A program made the translations under genes and the position numbers. The notes below the pieces were generated by a model. The model was given only the letters and a program-made list of their open reading frames with translations. It was not told the origin of the DNA and ran no database searches. Shown here one piece after another: positions 2,813 to 25,724 of a stretch of 64,000 bases of DNA. This DNA is from Escherichia coli (GTDB taxonomy: Bacteria > Pseudomonadota > Gammaproteobacteria > Enterobacterales > Enterobacteriaceae), in NCBI RefSeq assembly GCF_044647545.1, contig NZ_CP172818.1; one strand, 5' to 3'. How positions within the stretch are numbered: position 1 is the first letter of the stretch; every line of letters begins with the position of its first letter.

Positions 2813-4051
2813 TTATTCCGCGTTTTCGTGAATATGTTTGCTGCTGGCGGGTAGTAAACCGTCGGCACGGAACATCGCTTTAATTCCACGAATCGCCTGG
2901 CGAATACGATCGCGGTTTTCAATCAGTGCAAAGCGAACATGGGTGTCGCCGTAGTCGCCAAAGCCAATCCCTGGAGAGACACAGACCTTCGCTTCGTTAA
3001 GCATTTTCTTGGCAAATTCCAGTGAACCCATGGCCGCATACGGTTCCGGGATTTTCGCCCAGACATACATCGAAGCCTTCGGCATTTCGACCATCCAGCC
3101 CGCTTCATGCAGCCCTTTTACCAGTACATCACGGCGGCGTTTGTACTGTTCGGCAATGTCGCGCACGCACTGTTGATCGCCCTCCAGCGCCGCAATCGCT
3201 GCCACCTGCAACGGCGTAAAGGTGCCGTAATCGTGATAGCTTTTAATACGTGCCAACGCGCTGACCAGCGTTTTGTTACCGACCATAAAGCCGATACGCC
3301 AGCCCGCCATGTTGTAGCTTTTCGACAGCGTAAAGAACTCGACTGCCACATCGCGTGCACCTGGCACCTGCATGATTGACGGCGCTTTCCAGCCATCGTA
3401 GACGATGTCCGCATAGGCCAGGTCATGGACCACCAGCACATCGTAGCGTTTCGCCAGCGCCACTACTTTTTCGAAGAACTCCAGCTCCACGCATTGCGCG
3501 GTTGGGTTCGACGGGAAGCCGAGGATCATCATCTTCGGTTTTGGATAACTTTCGCGAATGGCGCGTTCCAGTTCGTTGAAGAAATCGACACCTTCCACCA
3601 GCGGCACTGAGCGTACCTGCGCCCCGGCAATCACCGCGCCGTAAATATGAATCGGGTAGCTTGGATTAGGCACCAGTACAGTGTCACCATGATCCAGCGT
3701 CGCCAGCATCAGATGCGCCAGGCCCTCTTTCGAACCAATAGTGACGATGGCTTCTGATTCCGGGTCGATTTCAACGTCGTAGCGATCCTGATACCAGCGG
3801 GAAATGGCGCGACGTAGCCGCGGAATGCCGCGTGAAGTGGAGTAACCATGCGTGTCCGGGCGCTGGGCCACCGTACATAATTTTTCGACGATATGCGGCG
3901 GAGTCGCACCGTCCGGGTTACCCATACTGAAATCGATAATATCTTCGCCGCGCCGACGCGCAGCCATTTTCAGTTCAGCGGTAATGTTAAAAACGTAGGG
4001 CGGGAGACGATCAATACGCGTAAAGCGACGTTCAGGGCGAGTGTCAGCCAT
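2813..4051 (-). CDS. alaC: glutamate-pyruvate aminotransferase (class I PLP aminotransferase)
   Basis: 412 aa ORF; PLP-lysine region [10 protein letters not shown]; N-terminus [21 protein letters not shown] matches AlaC (YfdZ). Confidence 0.92.
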
Positions 4052-4427
4052 AATGTCCTCAGATTAACGTTAGCGCCCGGACCGTCCGAGCGACGCTGCC
4101 ACGATGGTGGCTGTTTTGAAAATAGCCTGATTAATTTCTGTCTGTCCAGCGTTTTAGAACATTTTTATCAATGGCTTTAAATGAGGAACTCCACTTCAAA
4201 AACAGGAAATTTATCTGCGCTAACAAGAAAATTACCACTCATTTTATTAACATTATAATTTCAATAAATTTACCAAGCAGATGTGCATTATCAAGAGATG
4301 CATTGCTAATACACCATTTATCCTTCAATCCCCTTTTAAAATTGTGGTTTTTCCTCAAAAACGGCCTGCTGGTCATCAGCCTTCAGGTTACCTATCATAG
4401 AGGTTTAATCCTTATTCAGAGTCACCC

Positions 4428-6125
4428 GTGCACGAAATATTCAACATGCTGCTGGCGGTCTTCGATCGGGCAGCGTTAATGCTTATCTGCCTGTTTTTTC
4501 TCATCCGTATCCGCCTGTTTCGCGAACTGTTGCACAAGTCGGCACACTCACCGAAAGAGCTGCTCGCCGTTACCGCCATTTTCTCGCTGTTCGCCCTGTT
4601 CAGCACCTGGTCCGGAGTTCCCGTAGAAGGCTCGCTGGTGAACGTACGTATTATCGCGGTGATGTCAGGCGGGATTCTGTTTGGCCCGTGGGTGGGCATC
4701 ATTACCGGCGTGATTGCGGGTATTCATCGTTATTTAATTGACATCGGCGGCGTGACGGCGATCCCCTGCTTTATCACCAGCATTCTGGCGGGTTGTATAT
4801 CGGGCTGGATCAACCTGAAAATCCCCAAAGCACAGCGCTGGCGCGTCGGTATTCTCGGCGGCATGTTATGTGAAACGTTGACCATGATTCTGGTGATTGT
4901 CTGGGCACCAACTACCGCGTTGGGGATCGATATCGTCTCTAAAATCGGCATTCCAATGATCCTCGGTAGCGTCTGTATCGGCTTTATTGTGCTGCTGGTG
5001 CAAAGCGTTGAGGGCGAAAAAGAGGCCAGCGCCGCGCGGCAGGCCAAGCTGGCGCTGGATATCGCCAACAAAACGCTGCCGCTGTTTCGCCATGTCAATA
5101 GCGAGTCATTACGCAAGGTCTGCGAAATTATCCGCGATGACATTCACGCCGATGCGGTGGCGATTACAAATACCGATCATGTGCTGGCCTATGTTGGCGT
5201 GGGTGAGCATAACTATCAGAATGGCGATGATTTCATTAGCCCGACTACCCGCCAGGCGATGAATTACGGAAAAATCATCATTAAAAACAATGATGAAGCC
5301 CACCGCACACCAGAGATTCATTCCATGCTGGTGATCCCATTGTGGGAGAAAGGCGTTGTGACCGGAACGCTGAAAATTTACTACTGCCACGCGCATCAGA
5401 TAACCTCGTCATTACAGGAAATGGCGGTCGGTCTGTCACAAATCATCTCCACGCAACTGGAGGTTTCGCGCGCTGAGCAGCTGCGTGAAATGGCAAATAA
5501 GGCAGAGCTTCGCGCCCTGCAAAGCAAAATTAATCCCCATTTCCTGTTTAACGCTTTGAACGCTATTTCATCGTCAATCCGCCTGAATCCGGATACTGCT
5601 CGCCAGCTGATCTTTAATTTGTCGCGCTATCTGCGCTATAACATTGAATTAAAAGATGATGAGCAAATCGATATCAAAAAAGAGCTGTATCAAATTAAAG
5701 ACTATATTGCCATTGAGCAGGCCCGCTTTGGCGACAAGCTGACGGTTATCTATGATATTGATGAAGAGGTGAATTGCTGCATTCCCAGCCTGCTGATCCA
5801 GCCGTTGGTGGAAAACGCCATTGTCCACGGTATCCAGCCTTGCAAAGGTAAAGGCGTTGTCACCATCAGCGTTGCAGAGTGCGGTAATCGGGTACGTATT
5901 GCGGTGCGAGATACCGGGCACGGCATCGATCCAAAGGTGATTGAGCGGGTCGAAGCGAATGAAATGCCGGGCAATAAAATTGGCCTGCTGAATGTCCATC
6001 ATCGCGTGAAGTTATTGTATGGCGAGGGGCTGCATATCCGCCGCCTGGAACCAGGAACGGAAATTGCGTTTTACATTCCTAACCAACGCACCCCAGTCGC
6101 CTCACAGGCTACCTTATTGCTTTGA
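4428..6125 (+). CDS. ypdA: LytS-type sensor histidine kinase of a pyruvate-responsive two-component system
   Basis: 565 aa; GTG start; N-terminal multi-TM 5TMR-LYT-like region, then GAF-like region and His-kinase/HATPase C-terminus. Confidence 0.88.
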
Positions 6126-6139
6126 GCCGGAGTGATATT

Positions 6140-6874
6140 GTGAAAGTCATCATTGTTGAAGACGAATTCCTGGCACAACAGGAACTGAGCTGGCTAATTA
6201 AAGAGCACAGCCAGATGGAGATTGTCGGCACCTTTGACGACGGTCTGGACGTGTTGAAGTTTTTGCAGCATAACCGCGTCGACGCCATTTTTCTGGATAT
6301 CAATATTCCGTCGCTGGATGGTGTGTTGCTGGCACAAAACATCAGCCAGTTCGCCCATAAACCGTTTATTGTGTTTATCACCGCGTGGAAAGAACATGCG
6401 GTAGAAGCGTTTGAACTGGAGGCGTTTGACTACATTCTCAAACCGTATCAGGAGTCACGCATTACCGGGATGCTGCAAAAACTGGAAGCAGCCTGGCAAC
6501 AACAGCAGACCAGCAGTACGCCTGCCGCGACGGTAACGCGTGAGAATGACACCATTAATCTGGTGAAAGATGAGCGAATCATCGTCACGCCCATTAACGA
6601 TATCTATTACGCCGAAGCGCATGAGAAAATGACCTTTGTCTATACGCGGCGTGAATCCTACGTAATGCCGATGAACATTACCGAGTTTTGCAGCAAGCTG
6701 CCGCCGTCGCATTTTTTCCGCTGCCATCGCTCATTTTGTGTCAATCTGAACAAAATCCGCGAGATCGAACCGTGGTTTAATAACACCTATATTCTGCGGC
6801 TGAAAGATCTGGATTTTGAAGTGCCGGTCAGCCGCAGCAAAGTTAAAGAATTCCGCCAGTTAATGCATCTTTAA
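6140..6874 (+). CDS. ypdB: LytTR-family response regulator
   Basis: GTG at 6140 gives 244 aa (M)KVIIVEDEFLAQQ...; receiver domain with conserved Asp (FLDINIP) and C-terminal LytTR DNA-binding domain. Confidence 0.88.
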   Translation: MKVIIVEDEFLAQQELSWLIKEHSQMEIVGTFDDGLDVLKFLQHNRVDAIFLDINIPSLDGVLLAQNISQFAHKPFIVFITAWKEHAVEAFELEAFDYILKPYQESRITGMLQKLEAAWQQQQTSSTPAATVTRENDTINLVKDERIIVTPINDIYYAEAHEKMTFVYTRRESYVMPMNITEFCSKLPPSHFFRCHRSFCVNLNKIREIEPWFNNTYILRLKDLDFEVPVSRSKVKEFRQLMHL

Positions 6875-6886
6875 TCGGGAACTTTC

Positions 6887-7744
6887 ATGAAAGCACCAGG
6901 CTTGCCCGCCGATCAACAATTTTTCGCCGATCTGTTCAGCGGCCTGGTGCTTAACCCGCAACTACTGGGGCGCGTCTGGTTTGCCAGCCAGCCTGCCTCA
7001 TTGCCAGTGGGCAGTTTATGTATTGATTTTCCCCGTCTGGATATCGTGCTACGCGGCGAATACGGCAACCTGCTGGAAGCAAAGCAGCAGCGAATGGTGG
7101 AAGGAGAAATGCTGTTTATTCCGGCGCGCGCGGCTAATTTACCGGTCAACAACAAACCGGTGATGCTGTTAAGCCTGGTGTTCGCACCGACCTGGCTTGG
7201 GTTATCGTTTTACGATAGCCGCACCACGTCGTTGTTGCATCCTGCCCGCCAGATCCAGCTTCCCAGCCTGCAACGCGGTGAAGGTGAAGCGATGCTTACC
7301 GCCCTCACCCATCTTAGCCGTTCGCCGCTGGAGCAGAATATCATTCAGCCACTGGTGTTAAGTTTGCTGCATCTTTGCCGTAACGTGGTGAATATGCCGC
7401 CGGGCAATTCGCAGCCGCGCGGCGATTTTCTCTATCACAGCATTTGTAACTGGGTTCAGGATAATTATGCCCAGCCGCTCACCCGCGAGAGCGTGGCGCA
7501 GTTTTTTAATATCACGCCCAATCATCTGTCAAAACTGTTTGCTCAGCATGGAACAATGCGTTTTATCGAGTATGTTCGCTGGGTACGAATGGCAAAGGCA
7601 AGGATGATTTTGCAGAAATATCATCTGTCGATTCATGATGTGGCACAGCGTTGCGGTTTTCCGGACAGCGACTATTTTTGTCGCGTTTTCCGGCGTCAGT
7701 TTGGCCTGACGCCGGGAGAGTACAGCGCCCGTTTTCAGGGCTAA
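6887..7744 (+). CDS. ypdC: AraC-family transcriptional regulator
   Basis: 285 aa; C-terminal AraC-type HTH (CGFPDSDYFCRVFRRQFGLTPGEY). Confidence 0.85.
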   Translation: MKAPGLPADQQFFADLFSGLVLNPQLLGRVWFASQPASLPVGSLCIDFPRLDIVLRGEYGNLLEAKQQRMVEGEMLFIPARAANLPVNNKPVMLLSLVFAPTWLGLSFYDSRTTSLLHPARQIQLPSLQRGEGEAMLTALTHLSRSPLEQNIIQPLVLSLLHLCRNVVNMPPGNSQPRGDFLYHSICNWVQDNYAQPLTRESVAQFFNITPNHLSKLFAQHGTMRFIEYVRWVRMAKARMILQKYHLSIHDVAQRCGFPDSDYFCRVFRRQFGLTPGEYSARFQG

Positions 7745-7746
7745 CG

Positions 7747-10242
7747 TCAGAAGGTTAATTCCGTTTCCAGCAGCGTCAGGATGCTTTGCGCATCTTGCGC
7801 GGCAAACAACGACTGGCGGAAGTTTTTATTCACCAGTTTGCGCGCCAGCTGCGAGAAGACTTTCACATGATTCATCCCTTCGTTAGCGCCCAGTGTCAGC
7901 ATGATCACCAGTTCGACTTCGCCCATTTCTGACTGCCAGTCAACCGGTTTCACCAGCCGGGCAATGCTGATACTGGAATGACGGATCCACTGAGATTTGG
8001 TGTGCGGGATCGCTACGCCAAAACCAACGCCGGTGGTAACAATCTCTTCCCGCTGCCAGACATCTTCTTCCAGCTCAAACGGATGTTCAGTACGCCCGTT
8101 AACACCAAGGTTGCCGCACAGGAACTGGATCGCCTGCTCTTTATTACTAAAGTCATGATCAACAAAGATATTCTCCAGCGCCAGCAGTGGGCGAACGTCT
8201 TCTTCCGGCGTAAAGGCGGTGAGTAACGCTTCAATCTCCTGCGCGCTGCGGCATTCACATGCCTGACGCGCCAGTTCCCGACACGCCTCGCTATCCAGTT
8301 GACGAAGCTGGCTTTTCACCGCCGGAATGCGCGGGCTACTCATACTCAGCTCGTCTAGGCCCAGCCCAAGCAGTAGCGGAAGATAACGGCTTTCACCGCC
8401 CAGTTCACCGCAAATACCTACCCATTTACCCCGCTGATGCGCAGTGGTAACAATCTGCTGCAACATGCGCAGGAACGATGGCGTAATCGGGTTATACAGC
8501 GGCGATACGCGCGGGTTATTACGATCGACCGCATACAGATACTGGGTCATATCGTTGGAGCCGATACTGAAGAAATCGACCTCATCGCAGAAGTGATCGA
8601 TGATGTAGCACACCGACGGCACTTCCACCATGATACCCAGCGTAATCGTCTCTGCATGACGCAGGCCATCGCGCTTAAGCTCAACGATCGCTTTTTGGAT
8701 CTCGCCCTTCACCCATAAGATCTGATCGAGGCTGTGAACCATCGGGATCATCAACTGGGCGTTGCCGAAACTGGCGGCGCGCAAAATGGCCCGCAGTTGA
8801 GTGCGAAACAGGCCAGCAAATTCCGGGTAAATACGTACCGCGCGATAGCCGAGGAACGGGTTCTCTTCCTGGGGAATATTCAGATAAGGAATGCTTTTAT
8901 CGCCGCCGATGTCCATCGTGCGGAAGATAATCGGCTTGTCGCCCGCCGCCAGTAGCACCTGCTGGTAGGCTTCAAATTGCTCCTGCTCGTCCGGCGCGCT
9001 GTCGCGATCCATATAGAGCATTTCGGTACGGAACAGCCCGACACCTTCCGCGCCGTTGGCAAACGCGCCTGGCGCTTCCAGAGCGGTGCCGATATTCGCC
9101 GCAATATCAATACGCTTGTTATCACGGGAATAGGCCAGCTGCGCGGCGGCCTGCGCCTGTTGTTTTTGGCGTTTATCCGCCAGCGTCTGCGCGACCTGAT
9201 AATAACCGCTCACCGCGTCATTCGGGTTAATCGCCAGCACGCCGCACTGGGCGTCAAGCACTGCCGGTTGCCCGGCATAGCGCGCGATCGCATCCAGCGG
9301 CAAGCCACTCAGTACCGGGATCGCCGAGGCACGGGCCAGAATCAGGGTATGCGAGGTGCGCCCGGTTTTCTCCAGAATCATGCCCGCAAGATTTTTTAAA
9401 TCGAGGCTCAAAAACTGGCTTGGGGTTAAATCTTCAGCCACCAGAATAGTCGGTTTTTCCAGCACCAGATTGTTGCGCGGTTTCAGTTCCGGCCAGGTGA
9501 TATGCAGCAACTGTTCGCTGATATCGCGAATGTCGCTGACCCGCTCGCGCAGATAATCACTGGCAGAAGCAGATAGTTTGGCGCAAACCTGCTCCATATT
9601 GCTGATGATCGCTGCACCCAGCCCCTGATGTTGTTCTGTCATCAGGCGACGGATATTGCCTGCAAATTCATCATCCTGAATCAGCGACAAATGGGCGCTG
9701 AGAATGGTTTTGCTTTCGCCGTCACGCTCGCGCAATTGCTGGTTCAGTTGCTCGGCAAGCGTTGCCAGGCTGTGCTCCAGCCGGGTGGAATCTTGCGCAC
9801 TGGCGGGGATCGCCCGGTAACTGTCGAGGCTGTCGCTCTGTAACAGGGTCAGCGTACCCACGCCAACGCCGCTTGCCAGCACGTTGCCGTACAGTAAATC
9901 CGGGTTCAGGCGGCTTAATGAACGCGGCAGCGGATGCGCCGTCAGTTCTGCCTGCGTTGGCTGGACGCTGTCGCTGTCGATAAAGCGCACCTGGATGTAC
10001 TCTTCCAGCACGCGCCGCGCCTGCTCTTCATCGCTGCCGCTAATGTTCAGGCTGCAACTGTCATTAAATAGGGTGCCGGTGCCAATCAGCGCCAGCGAGC
10101 TTTTGGCATCAGCCCTGGCGTTCTGGCGATGATTAATAAAGGTGACTTCACTTTGCCACTGGCTGCACTGCTCTTTAAGTTCCCACGCCGGACGAGCATG
10201 CAGACCGTTTGGCAAAGGACAGAGAAATTGAATCGTTAACAT
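7747..10242 (-). CDS. fryA: PTS multiphosphoryl transfer protein (HPr-EI-EIIA fusion) of the cryptic fructose-like PTS
   Basis: 831 aa; N-terminal HPr-like region, central enzyme I PEP-utilising domain, C-terminal EIIA-Fru/Ntr-type domain. Confidence 0.9.
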   Translation of the reverse strand: MLTIQFLCPLPNGLHARPAWELKEQCSQWQSEVTFINHRQNARADAKSSLALIGTGTLFNDSCSLNISGSDEEQARRVLEEYIQVRFIDSDSVQPTQAELTAHPLPRSLSRLNPDLLYGNVLASGVGVGTLTLLQSDSLDSYRAIPASAQDSTRLEHSLATLAEQLNQQLRERDGESKTILSAHLSLIQDDEFAGNIRRLMTEQHQGLGAAIISNMEQVCAKLSASASDYLRERVSDIRDISEQLLHITWPELKPRNNLVLEKPTILVAEDLTPSQFLSLDLKNLAGMILEKTGRTSHTLILARASAIPVLSGLPLDAIARYAGQPAVLDAQCGVLAINPNDAVSGYYQVAQTLADKRQKQQAQAAAQLAYSRDNKRIDIAANIGTALEAPGAFANGAEGVGLFRTEMLYMDRDSAPDEQEQFEAYQQVLLAAGDKPIIFRTMDIGGDKSIPYLNIPQEENPFLGYRAVRIYPEFAGLFRTQLRAILRAASFGNAQLMIPMVHSLDQILWVKGEIQKAIVELKRDGLRHAETITLGIMVEVPSVCYIIDHFCDEVDFFSIGSNDMTQYLYAVDRNNPRVSPLYNPITPSFLRMLQQIVTTAHQRGKWVGICGELGGESRYLPLLLGLGLDELSMSSPRIPAVKSQLRQLDSEACRELARQACECRSAQEIEALLTAFTPEEDVRPLLALENIFVDHDFSNKEQAIQFLCGNLGVNGRTEHPFELEEDVWQREEIVTTGVGFGVAIPHTKSQWIRHSSISIARLVKPVDWQSEMGEVELVIMLTLGANEGMNHVKVFSQLARKLVNKNFRQSLFAAQDAQSILTLLETELTF

Positions 10243-10266
10243 AACCGCTCCGGGTTAATCAGGAGA

Positions 10267-11304
10267 TCATCTGAAATCCGTCAGTTGAACAACCGTCTCA
10301 CGGGTAAGACGTTGAATAAGGGCAGATAAAAGCTGCTGCATCTGCAAAATGTCGCGGCAGTCGGCAATCGATGCGGCGCAATGTCCGTGGCGGGTTGCTG
10401 GCCCCATCACCACTGTGGGTACGCCAGTGCCGGTTAAATGCACCGCCCCGCCGTCCGTTCCGCCGTTGCTGAACATATCGGCCTGCAACGGCACGCCAAT
10501 TTCTGCCGCCACGGTTTCAATCCACGCGGTAAGTTTTGGCGGCGCAATCAGCGACTTGTCGCTTAACACCAGCATCGGCCCGTTACCAATCTGGCGATGG
10601 TTAGCCGCGCCATAATCAAAGTTTTTCGCCCAGCAGGCGGTATCAAGCACAATGGCGACATCCGGCGACACCGCGCGGGTGGCAGTTTGCCCGCCGCGTA
10701 ATCCCACCTCTTCGCTGGAACTTGCCACCAGCCACACTTCCGCAGGCAGTTCGGCGTCGTGCAGCTCACGCAGTAACGTCACCAGCAGATAGCAACCGAG
10801 GCGGTCATCAAAGGCTTTCCCCATTACCCGCTGGTGAGGGAGAACCTGAAAAGTGGTATCAAAGGTGACGCGATCGCCTGGACGAATTCCCGCCTGCATC
10901 ACTTCGTCACACGAGCGCGCGCCAATGTCCACGCGCATGGTGCTGACGTCATTCCCCTGCCGGTCGCCGTCAAGCAGGCCTGGAATTTTGCACTCTTCAC
11001 GGGTAGTGATACGCACCGACTGAAGCTGGCGGGCAGCCATGCGTACATTGCCAACCGGCAACACATCGATCGCCCCTTCGCGGGAGATGCTGCGCACCAT
11101 AAATCCCACTTCGTCCATATGCGCACAGATCATCACCTTCGGACCTGTCGATTCATTGAGGCGGATCAGCACCGATCCCAGGCCGTCAAATCGCACTTCT
11201 TTTTGCAGGCGATCCGCTTCTTCCAGCAGGATCTGCCGTACTTCCTGTTCCGAGGAGGCGATCGCATCTGCCTCGCTCAACGCTTTTAATAACGATAAAT
11301 CCAT
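10267..11304 (-). CDS. ypdE: M42-family aminopeptidase
   Basis: 345 aa; M42 (FrvX/YpdE-like) peptidase fold; embedded in the fry operon. Confidence 0.85.
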
Positions 11305-12389
11305 TATGCCTCTCCCGTGAGCAACACTGTTTTCGGCATGGCGTAGAGCACTTCTGCGCCTTGCGGGGTGACCAGCACAACATCTTCGATGCGCACGCCC
11401 CCTTGCCCTGGCAAATAAATCCCCGGCTCCACGGTCAGTAACATGCCTGGCTGTAGCGTCGTGGTGTCCCGCGGTGAAAAACGCGGATCTTCATGGACTT
11501 CAATGCCGATAGCATGACCGGTGTTATGACCGAAATAGTCGCCAAATCCAGCCTCGGTAATCACCCGGCGCGCGGCGTCGTCAACCTGCTGGCAGCGCAC
11601 GCCGGGGCGAATCGCGGAGATTGCCGCCAGCTGTGCCTGCAAAACAATCTGATAGACGTCAAACAGCGGGTGAGATTCGGCGCTCACCCCTTCGCCATTC
11701 ACCAGCAAGGTGCGTGTCATATCAGAGCAGTAGCCCTGATAGAGCGCACCGAAATCGAGAGTGACAAACTCGCCCGCTGCAACAATCTTGTCGCTGGCTT
11801 TGCCGTGCGGCAGCGCCCCACGCCAGCCGCTGGCGACAATGGTATCGAAAGAGGCTTTTTCTGCGCCCTGCTGGCGCATAAACCACTCCAGTTCAGCGGC
11901 TATCTCGCGCTCGCTCATCCCCGCCTGAATAAAGCGGCGAATATGCTCAGCACCGCGATCGGCAATCCCACAGGCGAGGCGGATTTTCTCCACCTCCTCT
12001 GGCGTTTTGATTTGCCGCAGCACATCCGGCGTGGCGCTAACCAGTTTCGCATTGAGTTCAGACTGCCAGCGGTGCGCGGTTTCCCAACTCACCTGCTGGC
12101 CCTCAAAACCGAGCGTTTGCAACTGCTCATCGGCAATGATTTGCCTGGCGATGGTGGTCAGCGTGTGCGTCGCATCAAGCAAATGCAGTTGGTAGCCTTG
12201 CGTGCGGGCTTCTACATCTACGTAATAGCGCGAGTCCACCAGAATGTGCGCACTTTCACGGCTAATCAGCACATAGCCTGATCCGGTGGAGATCCCCAGA
12301 TGCGGCTGTTTGTTCTGCCGTGAGGAGAGAAGCACCGCATCCAGTTGTTGCGCCTTAAGCCAGTCGCGCAGCGAGGCAAGTAATGTCAT
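11304..12389 (-). CDS. ypdF: M24-family Xaa-Pro aminopeptidase
   Basis: 361 aa; creatinase/prolidase N-terminal region plus M24 metal-binding C-terminus ([13 protein letters not shown]); stop overlaps the ypdE start. Confidence 0.85.
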
Positions 12390-12403
12390 CAGGATTGTCC
12401 TTC

Positions 12404-13651
12404 TTACAGGCTATCGATTAACAATTTGCCTTTGCGGAACATCATCAGACGCAGGAACACCACCATCAGCGCAGTTATGACTGCCCCCAGCGCGATCCCC
12501 GCCATGTAGACGCCGAGGTTAGTGACCAGCGGCCATGCCCAGATAGCGGACTCCGGGAACCATTGCACTGCGCCCAGCCAGACTGCAGCGGTTGAGCCGA
12601 CAATCGCGCCAACCATATAGGACGGAATGGCGGTGATGGGACTTTCCAGTGCAAACGGAATCGCACCTTCACTGATCCCCATAAACGCCAGGAACATGGC
12701 GGTTTTACCCTGCGGATAAAGCTGAGCACTGAACAGACGTTTGCCGGTTAAACGGCGGTCGATAATGGTCGCCAGACCCAGACCAATCGGCGGAATAACA
12801 ATAGCGATGGAACGCGCGGTAACCGGTAATACGTGGTCAGTGGTAAAGCTGAAGGCAACGAAACCAGCTGCTTTGTTGATCGGGCCACCAAGGTCGATTG
12901 CTGTCGCCGCGGCGATCCCCATCGCGTACATCAGCGCGCCCTTCTCACCTGCGGCAGTCAGCACGGTACGGATACCGCCGTTGATCCAGCCGCCAAAGGG
13001 GGTGATGACGTAGTACATCGCCAGCATGACAAAAATGGCGGAAAGAATCGGTAGCAAAAATGTGGTTTTGAACGCTAACAGGAAATCCGGTAACTGGATT
13101 TTCTGGTTCATCCACTTCACAAGGTAACCGGCAACGATAGATATAATCAGGGCACCAATGAAGGTGGACGGTACCGGCGAAGAGGTCGCCCATTGCATAG
13201 TGCTGGGATCGAAGTTCAGCAGTTGCGTCGGCTGGGTAGACATCAACCCGCCGATAAAACCAGCCGGGAACGCCAGTTTGCCACCGATAGAGTTCGCCAC
13301 AAATGCAGCAAACATCGGAATGGCAAAACCAAACAACACGCCGCCGAAGGACTGCGACAACCAGGCAAATTTCAGTAAGGAGAGGTCGAAACCGGAGAAT
13401 TTCCCGCTATTAAGAGCATCCATGATGCCGATATCAGCAGGAATTTTAAGCCAGCTATAAGCAATCAGCTGGCTGAAAGCGAGGATCACACCGCCCATAA
13501 TTAAGGTCGGCACCATGCGTGAAATCCCTGACATCACATGCTGCGGGAGTTCACCCCAGAAGCTGCTTTTAGAGGCCTGCGGATTCTTAACTGCCGCTGC
13601 CGCACCGGATGCGCCAGGCACAACGGTTGCACTGCGTTTTTTAATGGCCAT
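12404..13651 (-). CDS. fryC: PTS fructose-like EIIC permease
   Basis: 415 aa polytopic membrane protein of the PTS EIIC-Fru family. Confidence 0.88.
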
Positions 13652-13672
13652 AACAATTATCCCTGTCGAATA

Positions 13673-13999
13673 TTACTGTTGTTCAGAGGCAATCATCTCT
13701 TCGATTTCTTTGATGATGCCCGCAGCGTTTTTAATTGCGTCCTGCAAAGTGATTTCATAAACGTCGCGTGATTCGAAACGTTCGTTATCTTCCGGGGTAA
13801 CCGCCACGGAGTGGATGATGATGGTCGCTTCGGCGATATCCTGCGCGGTCAGGCGATTCTGGATACCGTCCGCGCCCTGAGTTTCAATTTTCACTTCATA
13901 GCCTGCTTCCACCGCCGCTTCTTCCAGCGCCTGGGCTGCCATAAAGGTGTGAGCCAGACCCATCGGGCAGGCACATAAAGCAATCAGTTTCTTACTCAT
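13673..13999 (-). CDS. fryB: PTS fructose-like EIIB component
   Basis: Internal ATG at 13997-13999 gives 108 aa MSKKLIALCACPMGLAHTFMAA; the CxxG phospho-Cys motif is typical of EIIB-Fru. Confidence 0.85.
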   Translation of the reverse strand: MSKKLIALCACPMGLAHTFMAAQALEEAAVEAGYEVKIETQGADGIQNRLTAQDIAEATIIIHSVAVTPEDNERFESRDVYEITLQDAIKNAAGIIKEIEEMIASEQQ

Positions 14000-14164
14000 C
14001 GTTAATTCCTCGTTCAGTGATAGTTGACGAGTGAAATTATGAACGTGCAAAACAAATCGCCGTTACCAGACAAATAATGCATTTACTGGAGAATTAATCC
14101 CGCTGTACGGAAGTGTGACGCAGGTCGGCCTTGTGAGGTGACACAAAGAAAAATTGAATTAACT

Positions 14165-14203
14165 GTATGATTTAAAAGATTATCGGGAGAGTTATCTCCC
14201 GAT
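14165..14203 (-). terminator. intrinsic terminator downstream of glk
   Basis: Hairpin atcgggaga-gtt-atctcccgat (14182-14203) followed on the minus strand by a T-rich tract. Confidence 0.5.
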
Positions 14204-22435: not shown

Positions 22436-22511
<76 letters not shown>

Positions 22512-22550
22512 ACGAGGCGTTTACGTACCAAATTTGCTGGGTGCAAAATT

Positions 22551-22626
<76 letters not shown>

Positions 22627-25326: not shown

Positions 25327-25402
25327 GGGTGATTAGCTCAGCTGGGAGAGCACCTCCCTTACAAGGAGGGGGTCGGCGGTTCGATCCCGTCATCACCCAC
25401 CA
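25327..25402 (+). tRNA. valU: tRNA-Val (UAC)
   Basis: 76 nt GGGTGATTAGCTCAGCTGGGAGAGCACCTCCCTTACAAGGAGGGGGTCGGCGGTTCGATCCCGTCATCACCCACCA. Confidence 0.95.
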
Positions 25403-25446
25403 ACTACTTTATGTAGTCTCCGCCGTGTAGCAAGAAATTGAGAAGT

Positions 25447-25522
25447 GGGTGATTAGCTCAGCTGGGAGAGCACCTCCCTTACAAGGAGGGGGTCGGCGGT
25501 TCGATCCCGTCATCACCCACCA
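25447..25522 (+). tRNA. valX: tRNA-Val (UAC)
   Basis: Identical 76-nt tRNA-Val sequence. Confidence 0.95.
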
Positions 25523-25568
25523 CTTTCTCGCCAGCTAGATTTCTTGTAAAAATGTGAAGTACCGAAGT

Positions 25569-25644
25569 GGGTGATTAGCTCAGCTGGGAGAGCACCTCCC
25601 TTACAAGGAGGGGGTCGGCGGTTCGATCCCGTCATCACCCACCA
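25569..25644 (+). tRNA. valY: tRNA-Val (UAC)
   Basis: Identical 76-nt tRNA-Val sequence. Confidence 0.95.
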
Positions 25645-25648
25645 CTTC

Positions 25649-25724
25649 GGGTCGTTAGCTCAGTTGGTAGAGCAGTTGACTTTTAATCAATTGGTCGCAG
25701 GTTCGAATCCTGCACGACCCACCA
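25649..25724 (+). tRNA. lysV: tRNA-Lys (UUU)
   Basis: 76 nt GGGTCGTTAGCTCAGTTGGTAGAGCAGTTGACTTTTAATCAATTGGTCGCAGGTTCGAATCCTGCACGACCCACCA. Confidence 0.95.

Follow-up and report, generated by a model that had tools for sequence, protein, structure and literature searches.

The AraC-type regulator gene ypdC of Escherichia coli belongs to an accessory fry cassette and probably encodes a CRP-assisted regulator of the fry operon

Does an AraC-type regulator gene belong to the signalling genes that precede it or to the operon towards which it is transcribed? This question is raised by ypdC in a stretch of 64,000 nucleotides from Escherichia coli (contig NZ_CP172818.1 of assembly GCF_044647545.1; here called the window), where it follows the two-component system genes ypdA and ypdB on the same strand and converges on fry, an operon encoding a phosphotransferase system (PTS). 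The original prediction described ypdABC as a compact module and left the role of ypdC and any regulatory link to fry open. In our analysis the comparative evidence favours a link between YpdC and fry, and a link between YpdB and fry is not supported by the sequence, since the window contains no YpdB tandem site. With a probability of about 0.72, YpdC is a ligand-dependent regulator of the fry operon that is assisted by CRP and works like AraC at P_BAD, its link to YpdAB being positional only.

The proteins of the window were mapped onto 35 loci with a ypdC ortholog, fetched from species-representative genomes in approximately 15 genera. The loci were collected with YpdC as query, and fry cassettes without ypdC fall outside this sample. 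The fryA gene was found within the fetched flank of ypdC in 34 of the 35 loci and was convergent with it within 1.2 kb in 32. The ypdAB genes lie beside ypdC in 15 loci (Escherichia, Citrobacter, Pseudocitrobacter and Kluyvera) and are not adjacent to it in the other 20, which comprise 18 Enterobacter-type genomes and two Salmonella; a regular co-occurrence of ypdC with ypdAB across genomes was not observed. Neither alaC nor glk orthologs stand beside the block of ypdC and fryA-ypdE-ypdF-fryC-fryB in the 18 Enterobacter-type genomes (Enterobacter, Lelliottia, Pluralibacter, Superficieibacter, Huaxiibacter, Buttiauxella and others); in the six of them that were sampled in detail, the block is located between ahpCF-uspG-rnk and rna-dcuC. 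The site that the block occupies in E. coli is empty in Enterobacter, Cronobacter and Phytobacter, where the order reads ypdK-alaC-ypdA-ypdB-glk-yfeO without ypdC or fry and just a terminator hairpin separates ypdB from glk. The YpdA orthologs of these three genera are 88–92% identical, a range that also holds for YpdA between genera generally, compared to 58–82% for YpdC.

Because ypdAB is found alone in the alaC...glk interval and the block of ypdC and fry is found elsewhere, ypdAB is a resident of this interval in Enterobacteriaceae and is separate from the fry cassette. The ypdC gene, together with fryB-fryC-ypdF-ypdE-fryA, forms a six-gene accessory cassette of approximately 7.3 kb (approximately 6875–14180 in the window), which is located between ypdB and the glk terminator in the lineage of Escherichia, Citrobacter and Salmonella and in the rnk...rna interval in Enterobacter-type genomes. 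The spacing between ypdB and ypdC is tight in E. coli because this block lies directly behind ypdB. Thus, the compact module that had been proposed stands as a description of tightly spaced genes on one strand, but not as an evolutionary or functional unit, and the transcriptional coupling of ypdC to ypdAB is an accident of insertion and not a signalling relationship.

Salmonella provides a natural deletion of ypdAB. In S. enterica subsp. arizonae and subsp. diarizonae, alaC is followed by a spacer of 585 bp and then by ypdC, fry and glk. The first approximately 310 nt of the spacer are homologous to the alaC-ypdA intergenic region of E. coli, and the rest contains a decayed ypdA fragment (E = 2e-4) and a fragment of the ypdB 3´ end (E = 3e-8), in which the scar reads SRSKVK*F... 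compared to SRSKVKEFRQLMHL* in the ypdB 3´ end. The loss of ypdAB fits a report according to which Salmonella has BtsS-type kinases only (PMC5552118). The ypdC gene is intact in both subspecies, and the ratio of nonsynonymous to synonymous substitution rates (dN/dS) between them is 0.068; it is 0.04–0.11 in other pairs and approximately 0.09 between E. coli and Salmonella. Since ypdC remained intact with such a low ratio after ypdAB had been lost, it is under purifying selection independently of ypdAB. The synonymous divergence (dS) between genera is 1.4–2.4 and thereby saturated, so that conservation of non-coding sequence over this distance is meaningful.

Such conserved non-coding sequence is located upstream of fryB, the first gene of the operon. 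An alignment of this region from 22 genomes, covering both chromosomal contexts of the cassette, revealed four elements, which are read on the fry strand and listed in Table 1: a CRP-like site, two 18-bp direct repeats (R1 and R2) and a putative -10 hexamer. The distance from the TCACA of the CRP-like site to R1 is 13 nt in all 22 genomes. R1 and R2 agree on average at 12.6 of their 18 positions, compared to a mean of 4.6 in the null set, in which only 0.06% of the 18-mers reach at least 12. The spacer between R2 and CATAAT is 20–21 nt long and unconserved, and spacers show 0.25–0.33 identity, which is the random level, compared to 1.00 for the -10. A -35 element could not be recognised at 17-bp spacing from CATAAT, nor is there a conserved one. 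All loci long enough to include the region upstream of fryB carry R2 there, and in no locus does it occur upstream of ypdA or ypdC; in the window R2 has no second match at up to three mismatches. If transcription starts 7 nt after the -10, R2 would cover approximately -51 to -34 and R1 approximately -71 to -54, and the CRP-like site would be centred at approximately -92.5. This would be the class II activator layout of an AraC-type regulator, with two half-sites of approximately 17–18 bp, the proximal of which abuts or overlaps a weak -35. Autoregulation of ypdC was considered as well and is unsupported, with no R-type motif upstream of ypdC or ypdA in any locus.

The same arrangement can be followed beyond the fry cassette. 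A search of 1.84 billion representative proteins with FryA returned full-length HPr-EI-EIIA homologs at 43–50% identity. On a Tolumonas-like contig, IIC-IIB-FryA genes converge on a gene for a 284-aa AraC-type protein; the two YpdC-family genes of Aliagarivorans have fructose-family PTS genes around them; and one such gene stands at the edge of a frw-like metagenomic cluster. The FryA-type proteins of these three loci are 43–45% identical to FryA, and the four YpdC homologs (one from Tolumonas, two from Aliagarivorans and one metagenomic) align over nearly the full length, including the sensor domain, at 32–35% identity (E values from 1e-43 to 6e-56). A paralogous pair exists in E. coli itself. 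In K-12, ptsA is followed on the divergent side by frwC-frwB-pflD-pflC-frwD, which ends tail-to-tail and with an overlap on yijO; frwD-yijO has been listed as a convergent excludon (PMC12288877). YijO is a full-length paralog of YpdC (35% identity, E = 3e-48), and PtsA is 45% identical to FryA.

The divergent region of Aliagarivorans contains a perfect 18-nt inverted pair, TGGTTACAAAACTCCAGC, with one copy directed toward each operon, and its 14-mer core recurs upstream of the Tolumonas IIC gene. The shared element was found by aligning these promoters by eye and was then tested as an explicit pattern, TCCAG-N4-TG-N5-TT-N2-TC; automatic detection of direct repeats in the distant promoters gave nothing useful. 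In approximately 0.8 Mb of fetched loci the pattern matches solely predicted PTS promoters, and it has one match in the window, where 0.01 is expected. The ptsA-frwC intergenic region of K-12 (NC_000913.3 4142222–4142529) contains two matches, one toward each gene, compared to 0.03 expected, and none of 200 shuffles reached two. The pattern was derived without the ptsA copy and without the fryB copies of the Enterobacter type. With seven promoters placed in register on R1, the 22-bp segment centred 21.5 nt upstream matches the CRP core TGTGA-N6-TCACA at 7–9 of 10 positions in all seven; by a binomial estimate, a match of at least 7/10 at a fixed position has a probability of approximately 0.0035 per site. 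Since the same layout and spacing recur at seven promoters, the predicted architecture of CRP-like site, R1 and R2 would be a property of the regulator/PTS family and not of one locus. In Aliagarivorans taiwanensis (GCA_000429505.1) the YpdC-family regulators are also located near a type I phosphomannose isomerase gene and two GH5 mannanase genes with carbohydrate-binding modules; the PTS of this organism probably serves the use of mannan or manno-oligosaccharides.

YpdC has the standard two-domain build of an AraC/XylS protein and falls in an unnamed subfamily. Pfam detected HTH_18 (73.9 bits) and HTH_AraC (50.7 bits) in residues 204–281 and no domain in residues 1–200. An AlphaFold model (20 orthologs; predicted local distance difference test score 83) has a beta-rich N-terminal domain (30–126) and a helical C-terminal domain. 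In Foldseek the full-length model matched Rns, CsvR and ToxT (E values from 5e-9 to 3e-7) and its N-terminal part the RhaR regulatory domain (E = 2e-3), and the C-terminal domain superimposes on the DNA-binding domains of AraC, GadX, MarA and SoxS with a root mean square deviation of 1.2–2.8 Å. A cupin-like sensor domain (approximately residues 1–170) and a dual helix-turn-helix (HTH) domain (approximately 180–281) are therefore predicted by the model. None of the NCBIfam equivalogs of the AraC family claims the protein, which scores far below every cutoff (AraC 66 against 208 bits, RhaS 61 against 288, RhaR 56–61 against 363–525 and MelR 38 against 253). YpdC has been counted among the AraC-family proteins of unknown function (PMC4797297). 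Together with a binding screen discussed below (PMC8464067), and with the literature searched containing nothing on fry regulation and no fry substrate or phenotype, this bears out the earlier statement that the role of ypdC was unresolved.

The proposed promoter can be compared with well-studied ones. At P_BAD and P_rha, CRP binds upstream of two half-sites of 17–18 bp, the proximal of which overlaps the -35, and the half-sites are direct repeats in the case of AraC (PMC11983282). AraC at P_BAD and YpdC at PfryB would thus have in common a cupin-type sensor with a dual HTH (predicted for YpdC), direct-repeat half-sites that reach the -35, a poor -35 and a CRP site upstream, which is a CRP-like site at PfryB. 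The style of the half-sites is similar (xAGC-N7-TCCATA at araI and GCAT-N6/7-TCYRG for R1 and R2), and the AraC DNA-binding domain (2k9s, E = 7e-15) is the second-best match to YpdC by sequence among solved structures. YpdC is nevertheless not an AraC ortholog (66 bits against the cutoff of 208), the repeat period is 21 bp at ara but 20 bp at fry, and the ara regulator gene is divergent from its target, whereas ypdC is convergent with its presumed target, an operon of PTS and peptidase genes. For the O2-type looping site and the autoregulation known from ara, no counterpart was seen at ypdC, which has no R motif upstream.

RhaS at rhaBAD likewise uses two half-sites overlapping the -35, with CRP just upstream (PMC11983282), where fry has its CRP-like site. 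The half-sites of RhaS are inverted repeats 16 bp apart, whereas R1 and R2 are direct repeats. We take the CRP site of rhaBAD to be centred at -92.5, the same position as predicted for PfryB. The closest true relative is YijO with ptsA/frwCB-pflDC-frwD, in which both the regulator and the PTS protein are paralogous to those of fry. As in the fry cassette, the regulator gene lies tail-to-tail with the last PTS gene, and a CRP-like site, R1 and R2 are found at identical spacing at ptsA and at frwC. The frw cluster differs in having glycyl-radical enzyme genes (pflD and pflC), fsaB and gldA instead of the two aminopeptidase genes. YijO is also uncharacterised and is a parallel for YpdC, not a precedent. 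Other cryptic fructose-family PTS operons of E. coli, frvABXR and sgc, encode M42 homologs (FrvX and SgcX; compare YpdE) and a dedicated regulator. These regulators are members of other families than YpdC, and we know of no substrate for either operon.

In the mechanism that we propose, a dimer of YpdC would bind the direct repeats R1 and R2, the latter ending where the missing -35 would be. A sugar-derived ligand, bound in the N-terminal cupin-like domain, would switch YpdC on, and YpdC would then activate PfryB jointly with CRP, which would occupy a site approximately 21.5 nt upstream of R1. AraC and RhaS act in this manner at P_BAD and P_rha. We infer the binding of YpdC to R1 and R2, the activating sign, the role of CRP, the transcription start and the ligand alike from sequence. 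In E. coli, ypdC itself is probably transcribed by read-through from ypdAB, because 12 nt separate its start from ypdB and no promoter of its own could be seen.

Several observations weigh against this assignment. In a ChIP-exo screen (chromatin immunoprecipitation with exonuclease digestion) of 40 candidate regulators, tagged YpdC gave no peaks anywhere in K-12, PfryB included, which the authors attributed to inactive conditions (PMC8464067). If the experiment was done without inducer or with CRP inactive, this would account for the missing peaks. The linkage itself has gaps. At one locus, that of C. amalonaticus, fry is absent from the 10 kb next to ypdC, and unrelated genes occupy 7–8 kb between ypdC and fryA in Kluyvera ascorbata and Citrobacter sp. 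MGH106. Photobacterium was taken up as a further FryA/YpdC pairing but turned out to be a counter-example: its IIB-FryA (50% identity) comes without IIC, and no YpdC-like or AraC-type gene lies within 8 kb. Conserved linkage is moreover an association, which says nothing on the direction or the sign of regulation. As to the promoter, the CRP-like site at E. coli fryB matches the core at 7 of 10 positions and has a weak left half, R1 of Escherichia (GGATTAATTC...) is unlike that of the Enterobacter type (GCATCATTTA...), and three of the sequences that match the generalised pattern had served to derive it. All predicted positions relative to -35 and -10 depend on a single invariant hexamer, CATAAT.

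The neighbouring system has a known function. YpdAB is a pyruvate-responsive LytS/LytTR system whose target, yhjX, lies elsewhere in the genome (PMC4847170, PMC9765748, PMC5552118); the original prediction also described a pyruvate-responsive system with a distant target. The products of ypdA and ypdB are 100% identical to annotated proteins, with the Pfam domains 5TM-5TMR_LYT (2e-42), GAF (6e-7), His_kinase (PF06580; 4e-25) and HATPase_c (7e-11) in YpdA, all above the gathering scores, and Response_reg (2e-24) and LytTR (2e-34) in YpdB. The two genes of the window are thus the YpdAB (PyrSR) genes themselves, with the same domains that define YpdAB/BtsSR systems; the tandem site through which their published target is bound has no counterpart in the window, and ypdC is not a conserved component of YpdAB. 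At yhjX, YpdB binds GGCATTTCAT-N11-GGCATTTCAT, and LytTR sites generally consist of 9–11-nt repeats with 11–13 nt between them (PMC4847170). The tandem YpdB motif does not occur in the 64-kb window when up to three mismatches are allowed, and four single half-sites were found where 7.1 are expected. Control of fry by YpdB was therefore rejected. One exact copy of GGCATTTCAT is located at 5959–5968 (- strand) within the ypdA coding sequence; it has no partner at 11 nt and is consistent with chance.

It might be argued that ypdABC is a true three-gene signalling module, in which YpdC is an auxiliary in the pyruvate response, acting on yhjX or other distant targets, and its adjacency to fry is coincidental. 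The three genes are indeed located on the same strand with gaps of 14 and 12 nt, no promoter- or terminator-like site lies between them, and they have been reported as one transcription unit (PMC2731931). Such a module is nevertheless improbable, given that three genera carry ypdAB without ypdC at the same site, that ypdC has no adjacent ypdAB in 20 of the 35 loci and has stayed under purifying selection after the deletion in Salmonella, that YpdA and YpdC evolve at different tempos, and that YpdC-family genes stand beside FryA/PtsA-type PTS loci without adjacent ypdAB. The repeats upstream of fryB might alternatively be a LytTR site for YpdB or BtsR, through which pyruvate sensing would control fry directly. 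Sites of LytTR regulators likewise consist of two direct repeats, whose period is approximately 21 bp, and R2 contains GCATT, which resembles the core of GGCATTTCAT. The period at fry is however 20 bp and not 21, the tandem YpdB motif is absent from the window and its half-sites are at or below chance, the repeats are fully kept in the Salmonella subspecies without ypdAB, and the same element at ptsA/frwC, in Tolumonas and in Aliagarivorans stands beside YpdC-family and not LytTR genes. We therefore give this explanation hardly any weight.

Other alternatives accept the pairing of YpdC with fry but differ in what it does. YpdC might bind R1 and R2 and mainly repress, by occluding the -35, or act in both directions, with a ligand derepressing fry; R2 abuts or overlaps the -35 position, and fry is considered silent in laboratory strains of E. 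coli. AraC itself represses without its ligand (PMC11983282). A promoter without a conserved -35-like hexamer and with an unconserved spacer of 20–21 nt has, on the other hand, the signature of activator dependence, and a conserved CRP-like site at fixed spacing upstream of R1 fits the co-activation geometry of P_BAD and P_rha, so that we consider a mainly repressing or dual YpdC unlikely. A relic is also conceivable, that is, ypdC and fry of E. coli might have lost any regulatory activity and the elements might function in other species only. This would agree with the absence of ChIP-exo peaks (PMC8464067), with the lack of a fry substrate or phenotype in the literature searched and with truncated forms of YpdC in Shigella. 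It is very improbable for a region that 5422 of 5426 complete E. coli genomes carry at no less than 95% identity, with an intact ypdC whose dN/dS towards Salmonella is given above and with R1, R2 and the -10 intact in all Escherichia loci examined.

The truncated forms, which lack the HTH (approximately 170–240 aa, 97–99% identical over 59–67% of the length), are common in records of Shigella flexneri and S. dysenteriae and suggest that ypdC is becoming a pseudogene there. Fused products are seen in single metagenomic or draft records (a receiver with YpdC, 373 aa; LytTR with part of YpdC, 227 aa; YpdA with YpdB, 806 aa) and are most likely frameshifts or gene-calling artefacts across the gaps of 12–14 nt.

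The assignment of YpdC as a CRP-assisted regulator of fry would be of use for several reasons. YpdC is among the few dozen transcription factors of E. coli that still lack an assigned target, and fry and frw are long-standing cryptic PTS operons with no known substrate or regulator. The gene would move from the pyruvate-sensing system, where databases and operon tables have placed it by position, to the fry cassette. The elements in Table 1 (CRP-like site, R1, R2 and -10) make up a promoter model that is falsifiable at base resolution, and the same model covers YijO with ptsA/frwC, so that two orphan regulators could be assigned together. In the literature searched, the assignment of YpdC to fry and its extension to YijO appear to be new. 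It extends a well-understood class of regulation incrementally and introduces no new principle.

A much wider generalisation is doubtful at present. YpdC and YijO might form a hitherto unrecognised AraC subfamily dedicated to PTS with a fused EI-HPr-EIIA protein of the FryA/PtsA type, with an operator grammar (CRP, 21.5 nt, two half-sites of 20-bp period ending in TCCAG/TCYRG) kept across Enterobacterales, Aeromonadales and Alteromonadales. In Escherichia and Citrobacter, where ypdC would have come under the ypdAB promoter, an operon that senses pyruvate would then set the level of a regulator of a PTS that converts phosphoenolpyruvate to pyruvate, and selection may have preserved this rewiring. 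The aminopeptidases might point to a new class of PTS substrates such as a glycated amino acid or peptide.

The borders of the cassette vary between genomes. The junction of ypdC and fryA is a variable insertion point, whose length is 2 nt in E. coli, 0.3–1.1 kb in several genomes of Citrobacter and Salmonella, and over 10 kb in C. amalonaticus. Inserts at this junction in Citrobacter and Kluyvera were considered as clues to the substrate but consist of unrelated genes (a formate-dehydrogenase-like cluster and small genes) and were uninformative. In Enterobacter-type genomes, a gene for an alpha/beta-hydrolase-like protein (approximately 276 aa) is located upstream of ypdC on the same strand with tiny gaps or overlaps, and in some of them a flavin-reductase-like gene (approximately 206 aa) also precedes ypdC. 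These genes may be extra members of the cassette or the source of the ypdC promoter in these genomes. A contig labelled Chryseobacterium sp. 18061 carries an enterobacterial cassette of ypdC and fry that is nearly identical in organisation to that of Citrobacter sp. 18056, both in the Enterobacter-type context; contaminated or mislabelled co-culture assemblies are the probable reason for these names.

Table 1. Genes and predicted elements of the ypd/fry region, with positions in the window
Feature	Position	Strand	Remarks
Promoter-like TGGTCA-17-TATCAT upstream of ypdA	4370–4398	+	9/12 consensus positions; such matches occur in the region at chance number
ypdA, LytS-type sensor histidine kinase	4428–6125	+	565 aa; GTG start; stop TGA 6123–6125
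ypdB, LytTR response regulator	6140–6874	+	244 aa; GTG start
ypdC, AraC/XylS-family regulator	6887–7744	+	285 aa; ATG start; stop TAA 7742–7744
Strong hairpin within the last 60 nt of ypdC, approximately 30 nt from the fryA junction	7686–7719		14 bp; perfect 10-bp core 7690–7699/7706–7715
fryA (RefSeq ptsP), multiphosphoryl transfer protein HPr + EI + EIIA(Fru)	7747–10242	-	Last gene of the fry operon
ypdE, M42-family aminopeptidase	10267–11304	-	NF007421, 679 bits against cutoff 412
ypdF, M24-family (Xaa-Pro/Met-type) aminopeptidase	11304–12389	-	NF007310, 816 bits against cutoff 393
fryC, fructose-family PTS EIIC	12404–13651	-	TIGR01427, 157.7 bits against cutoff 157.55 (barely over)
fryB, fructose-family PTS EIIB	13673–13999	-	First gene of the operon; TIGR00829, 92.2 bits against cutoff 76.85
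Putative -10 CATAAT	14036–14041	-	Invariant in 22/22 genomes and two contexts; 36 nt before the fryB ATG in E. coli
R2 GCATTATTTGTCTGGTAA, promoter-proximal half-site of the proposed YpdC operator	14063–14080	-	18 bp; cross-context identity 0.83
R1 GGATTAATTCTCCAGTAA, distal half-site	14083–14100	-	18 bp; direct repeat of R2 at 20-bp period; cross-context identity 0.66
CRP-like site AAGGCCGAcctgcgTCACACTT	14111–14132	-	Centre 21.5 nt upstream of R1; GA-N6-TCACAyTT kept; cross-context identity 0.71
Hairpin ATCGGGAGATAACTCTCCCGAT with T-rich tail	14182–14203	-	14 nt past the glk stop; sequence reading

The gene content of the region consists of ordinary annotated genes. Several complete E. coli chromosomes match positions 4000–8000 at 100% identity, and RefSeq gives the order alaC, ypdA, ypdB, ypdC, ptsP (= fryA), ypdE, ypdF, fryC, fryB and glk on an identical record. 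This annotation and the Pfam domains agree with the gene identities named in the original prediction, and all of its coordinates are exact, including the GTG start of ypdB 14 nt past the ypdA stop and the convergent stops of ypdC and fryA, which have 2 nt between them (fryA stop at 7747–7749, TCA on the + strand). The distance from the ypdB stop to the ypdC start is 12 nt. FryA contains the domains HPr, PEP-utilizers N, mobile and C (EI) and EIIA_2. Fry is thus a fructose-family PTS, in which FryB is EIIB(Fru), FryC is EIIC(Fru) and FryA supplies EI, HPr and EIIA(Fru).

The hairpin downstream of glk is probably the terminator of this gene and marks the right-hand limit of the cassette. The hairpin within the 3´ end of ypdC gave z = -3.9 for a 201-nt region. 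Approximately two thirds of the orthologs keep it at synonymous sites, a rare CGG codon among them, and the loop codon is variable; no compensatory changes were seen in the orthologs in which it is broken, and no U-tract was found on either strand. It could mark the 3´ ends of overlapping convergent transcripts. A promoter and terminator scan of 3900–8200 gave matches at chance level only and no terminator at the ypdC/fryA junction. An Rfam scan at gathering thresholds, covering the entire window, returned six tRNAs far from the region and no other RNA family; the tRNA genes form clusters at 22439–22626 (- strand, two genes) and 25327–25721 (+ strand, four genes), which are unrelated to the fry/ypd region.

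The promoter-like sequence upstream of ypdA is conserved in Citrobacter and not in Salmonella, where ypdAB is deleted, which is weak evidence for a candidate promoter of ypdAB and, by read-through in E. coli, of ypdC. The idea that Salmonella kept this promoter to drive ypdC was dropped, as the homology of the alaC-ypdA spacer stops at approximately 4357, upstream of the predicted -35. Two blocks in this spacer are strongly conserved. The 60 nt just upstream of the alaC start (4052–4111, alaC strand), which contain the hairpin GCCACCATCGTGGC, are nearly invariant between E. coli, Citrobacter and Salmonella, and the block CAATCCCCTTTTAAAATTGTGGTTTTTCCTC at 4327–4357 is kept even in Salmonella with ypdAB deleted. 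Both blocks probably belong to the regulation of alaC and not of ypdA.

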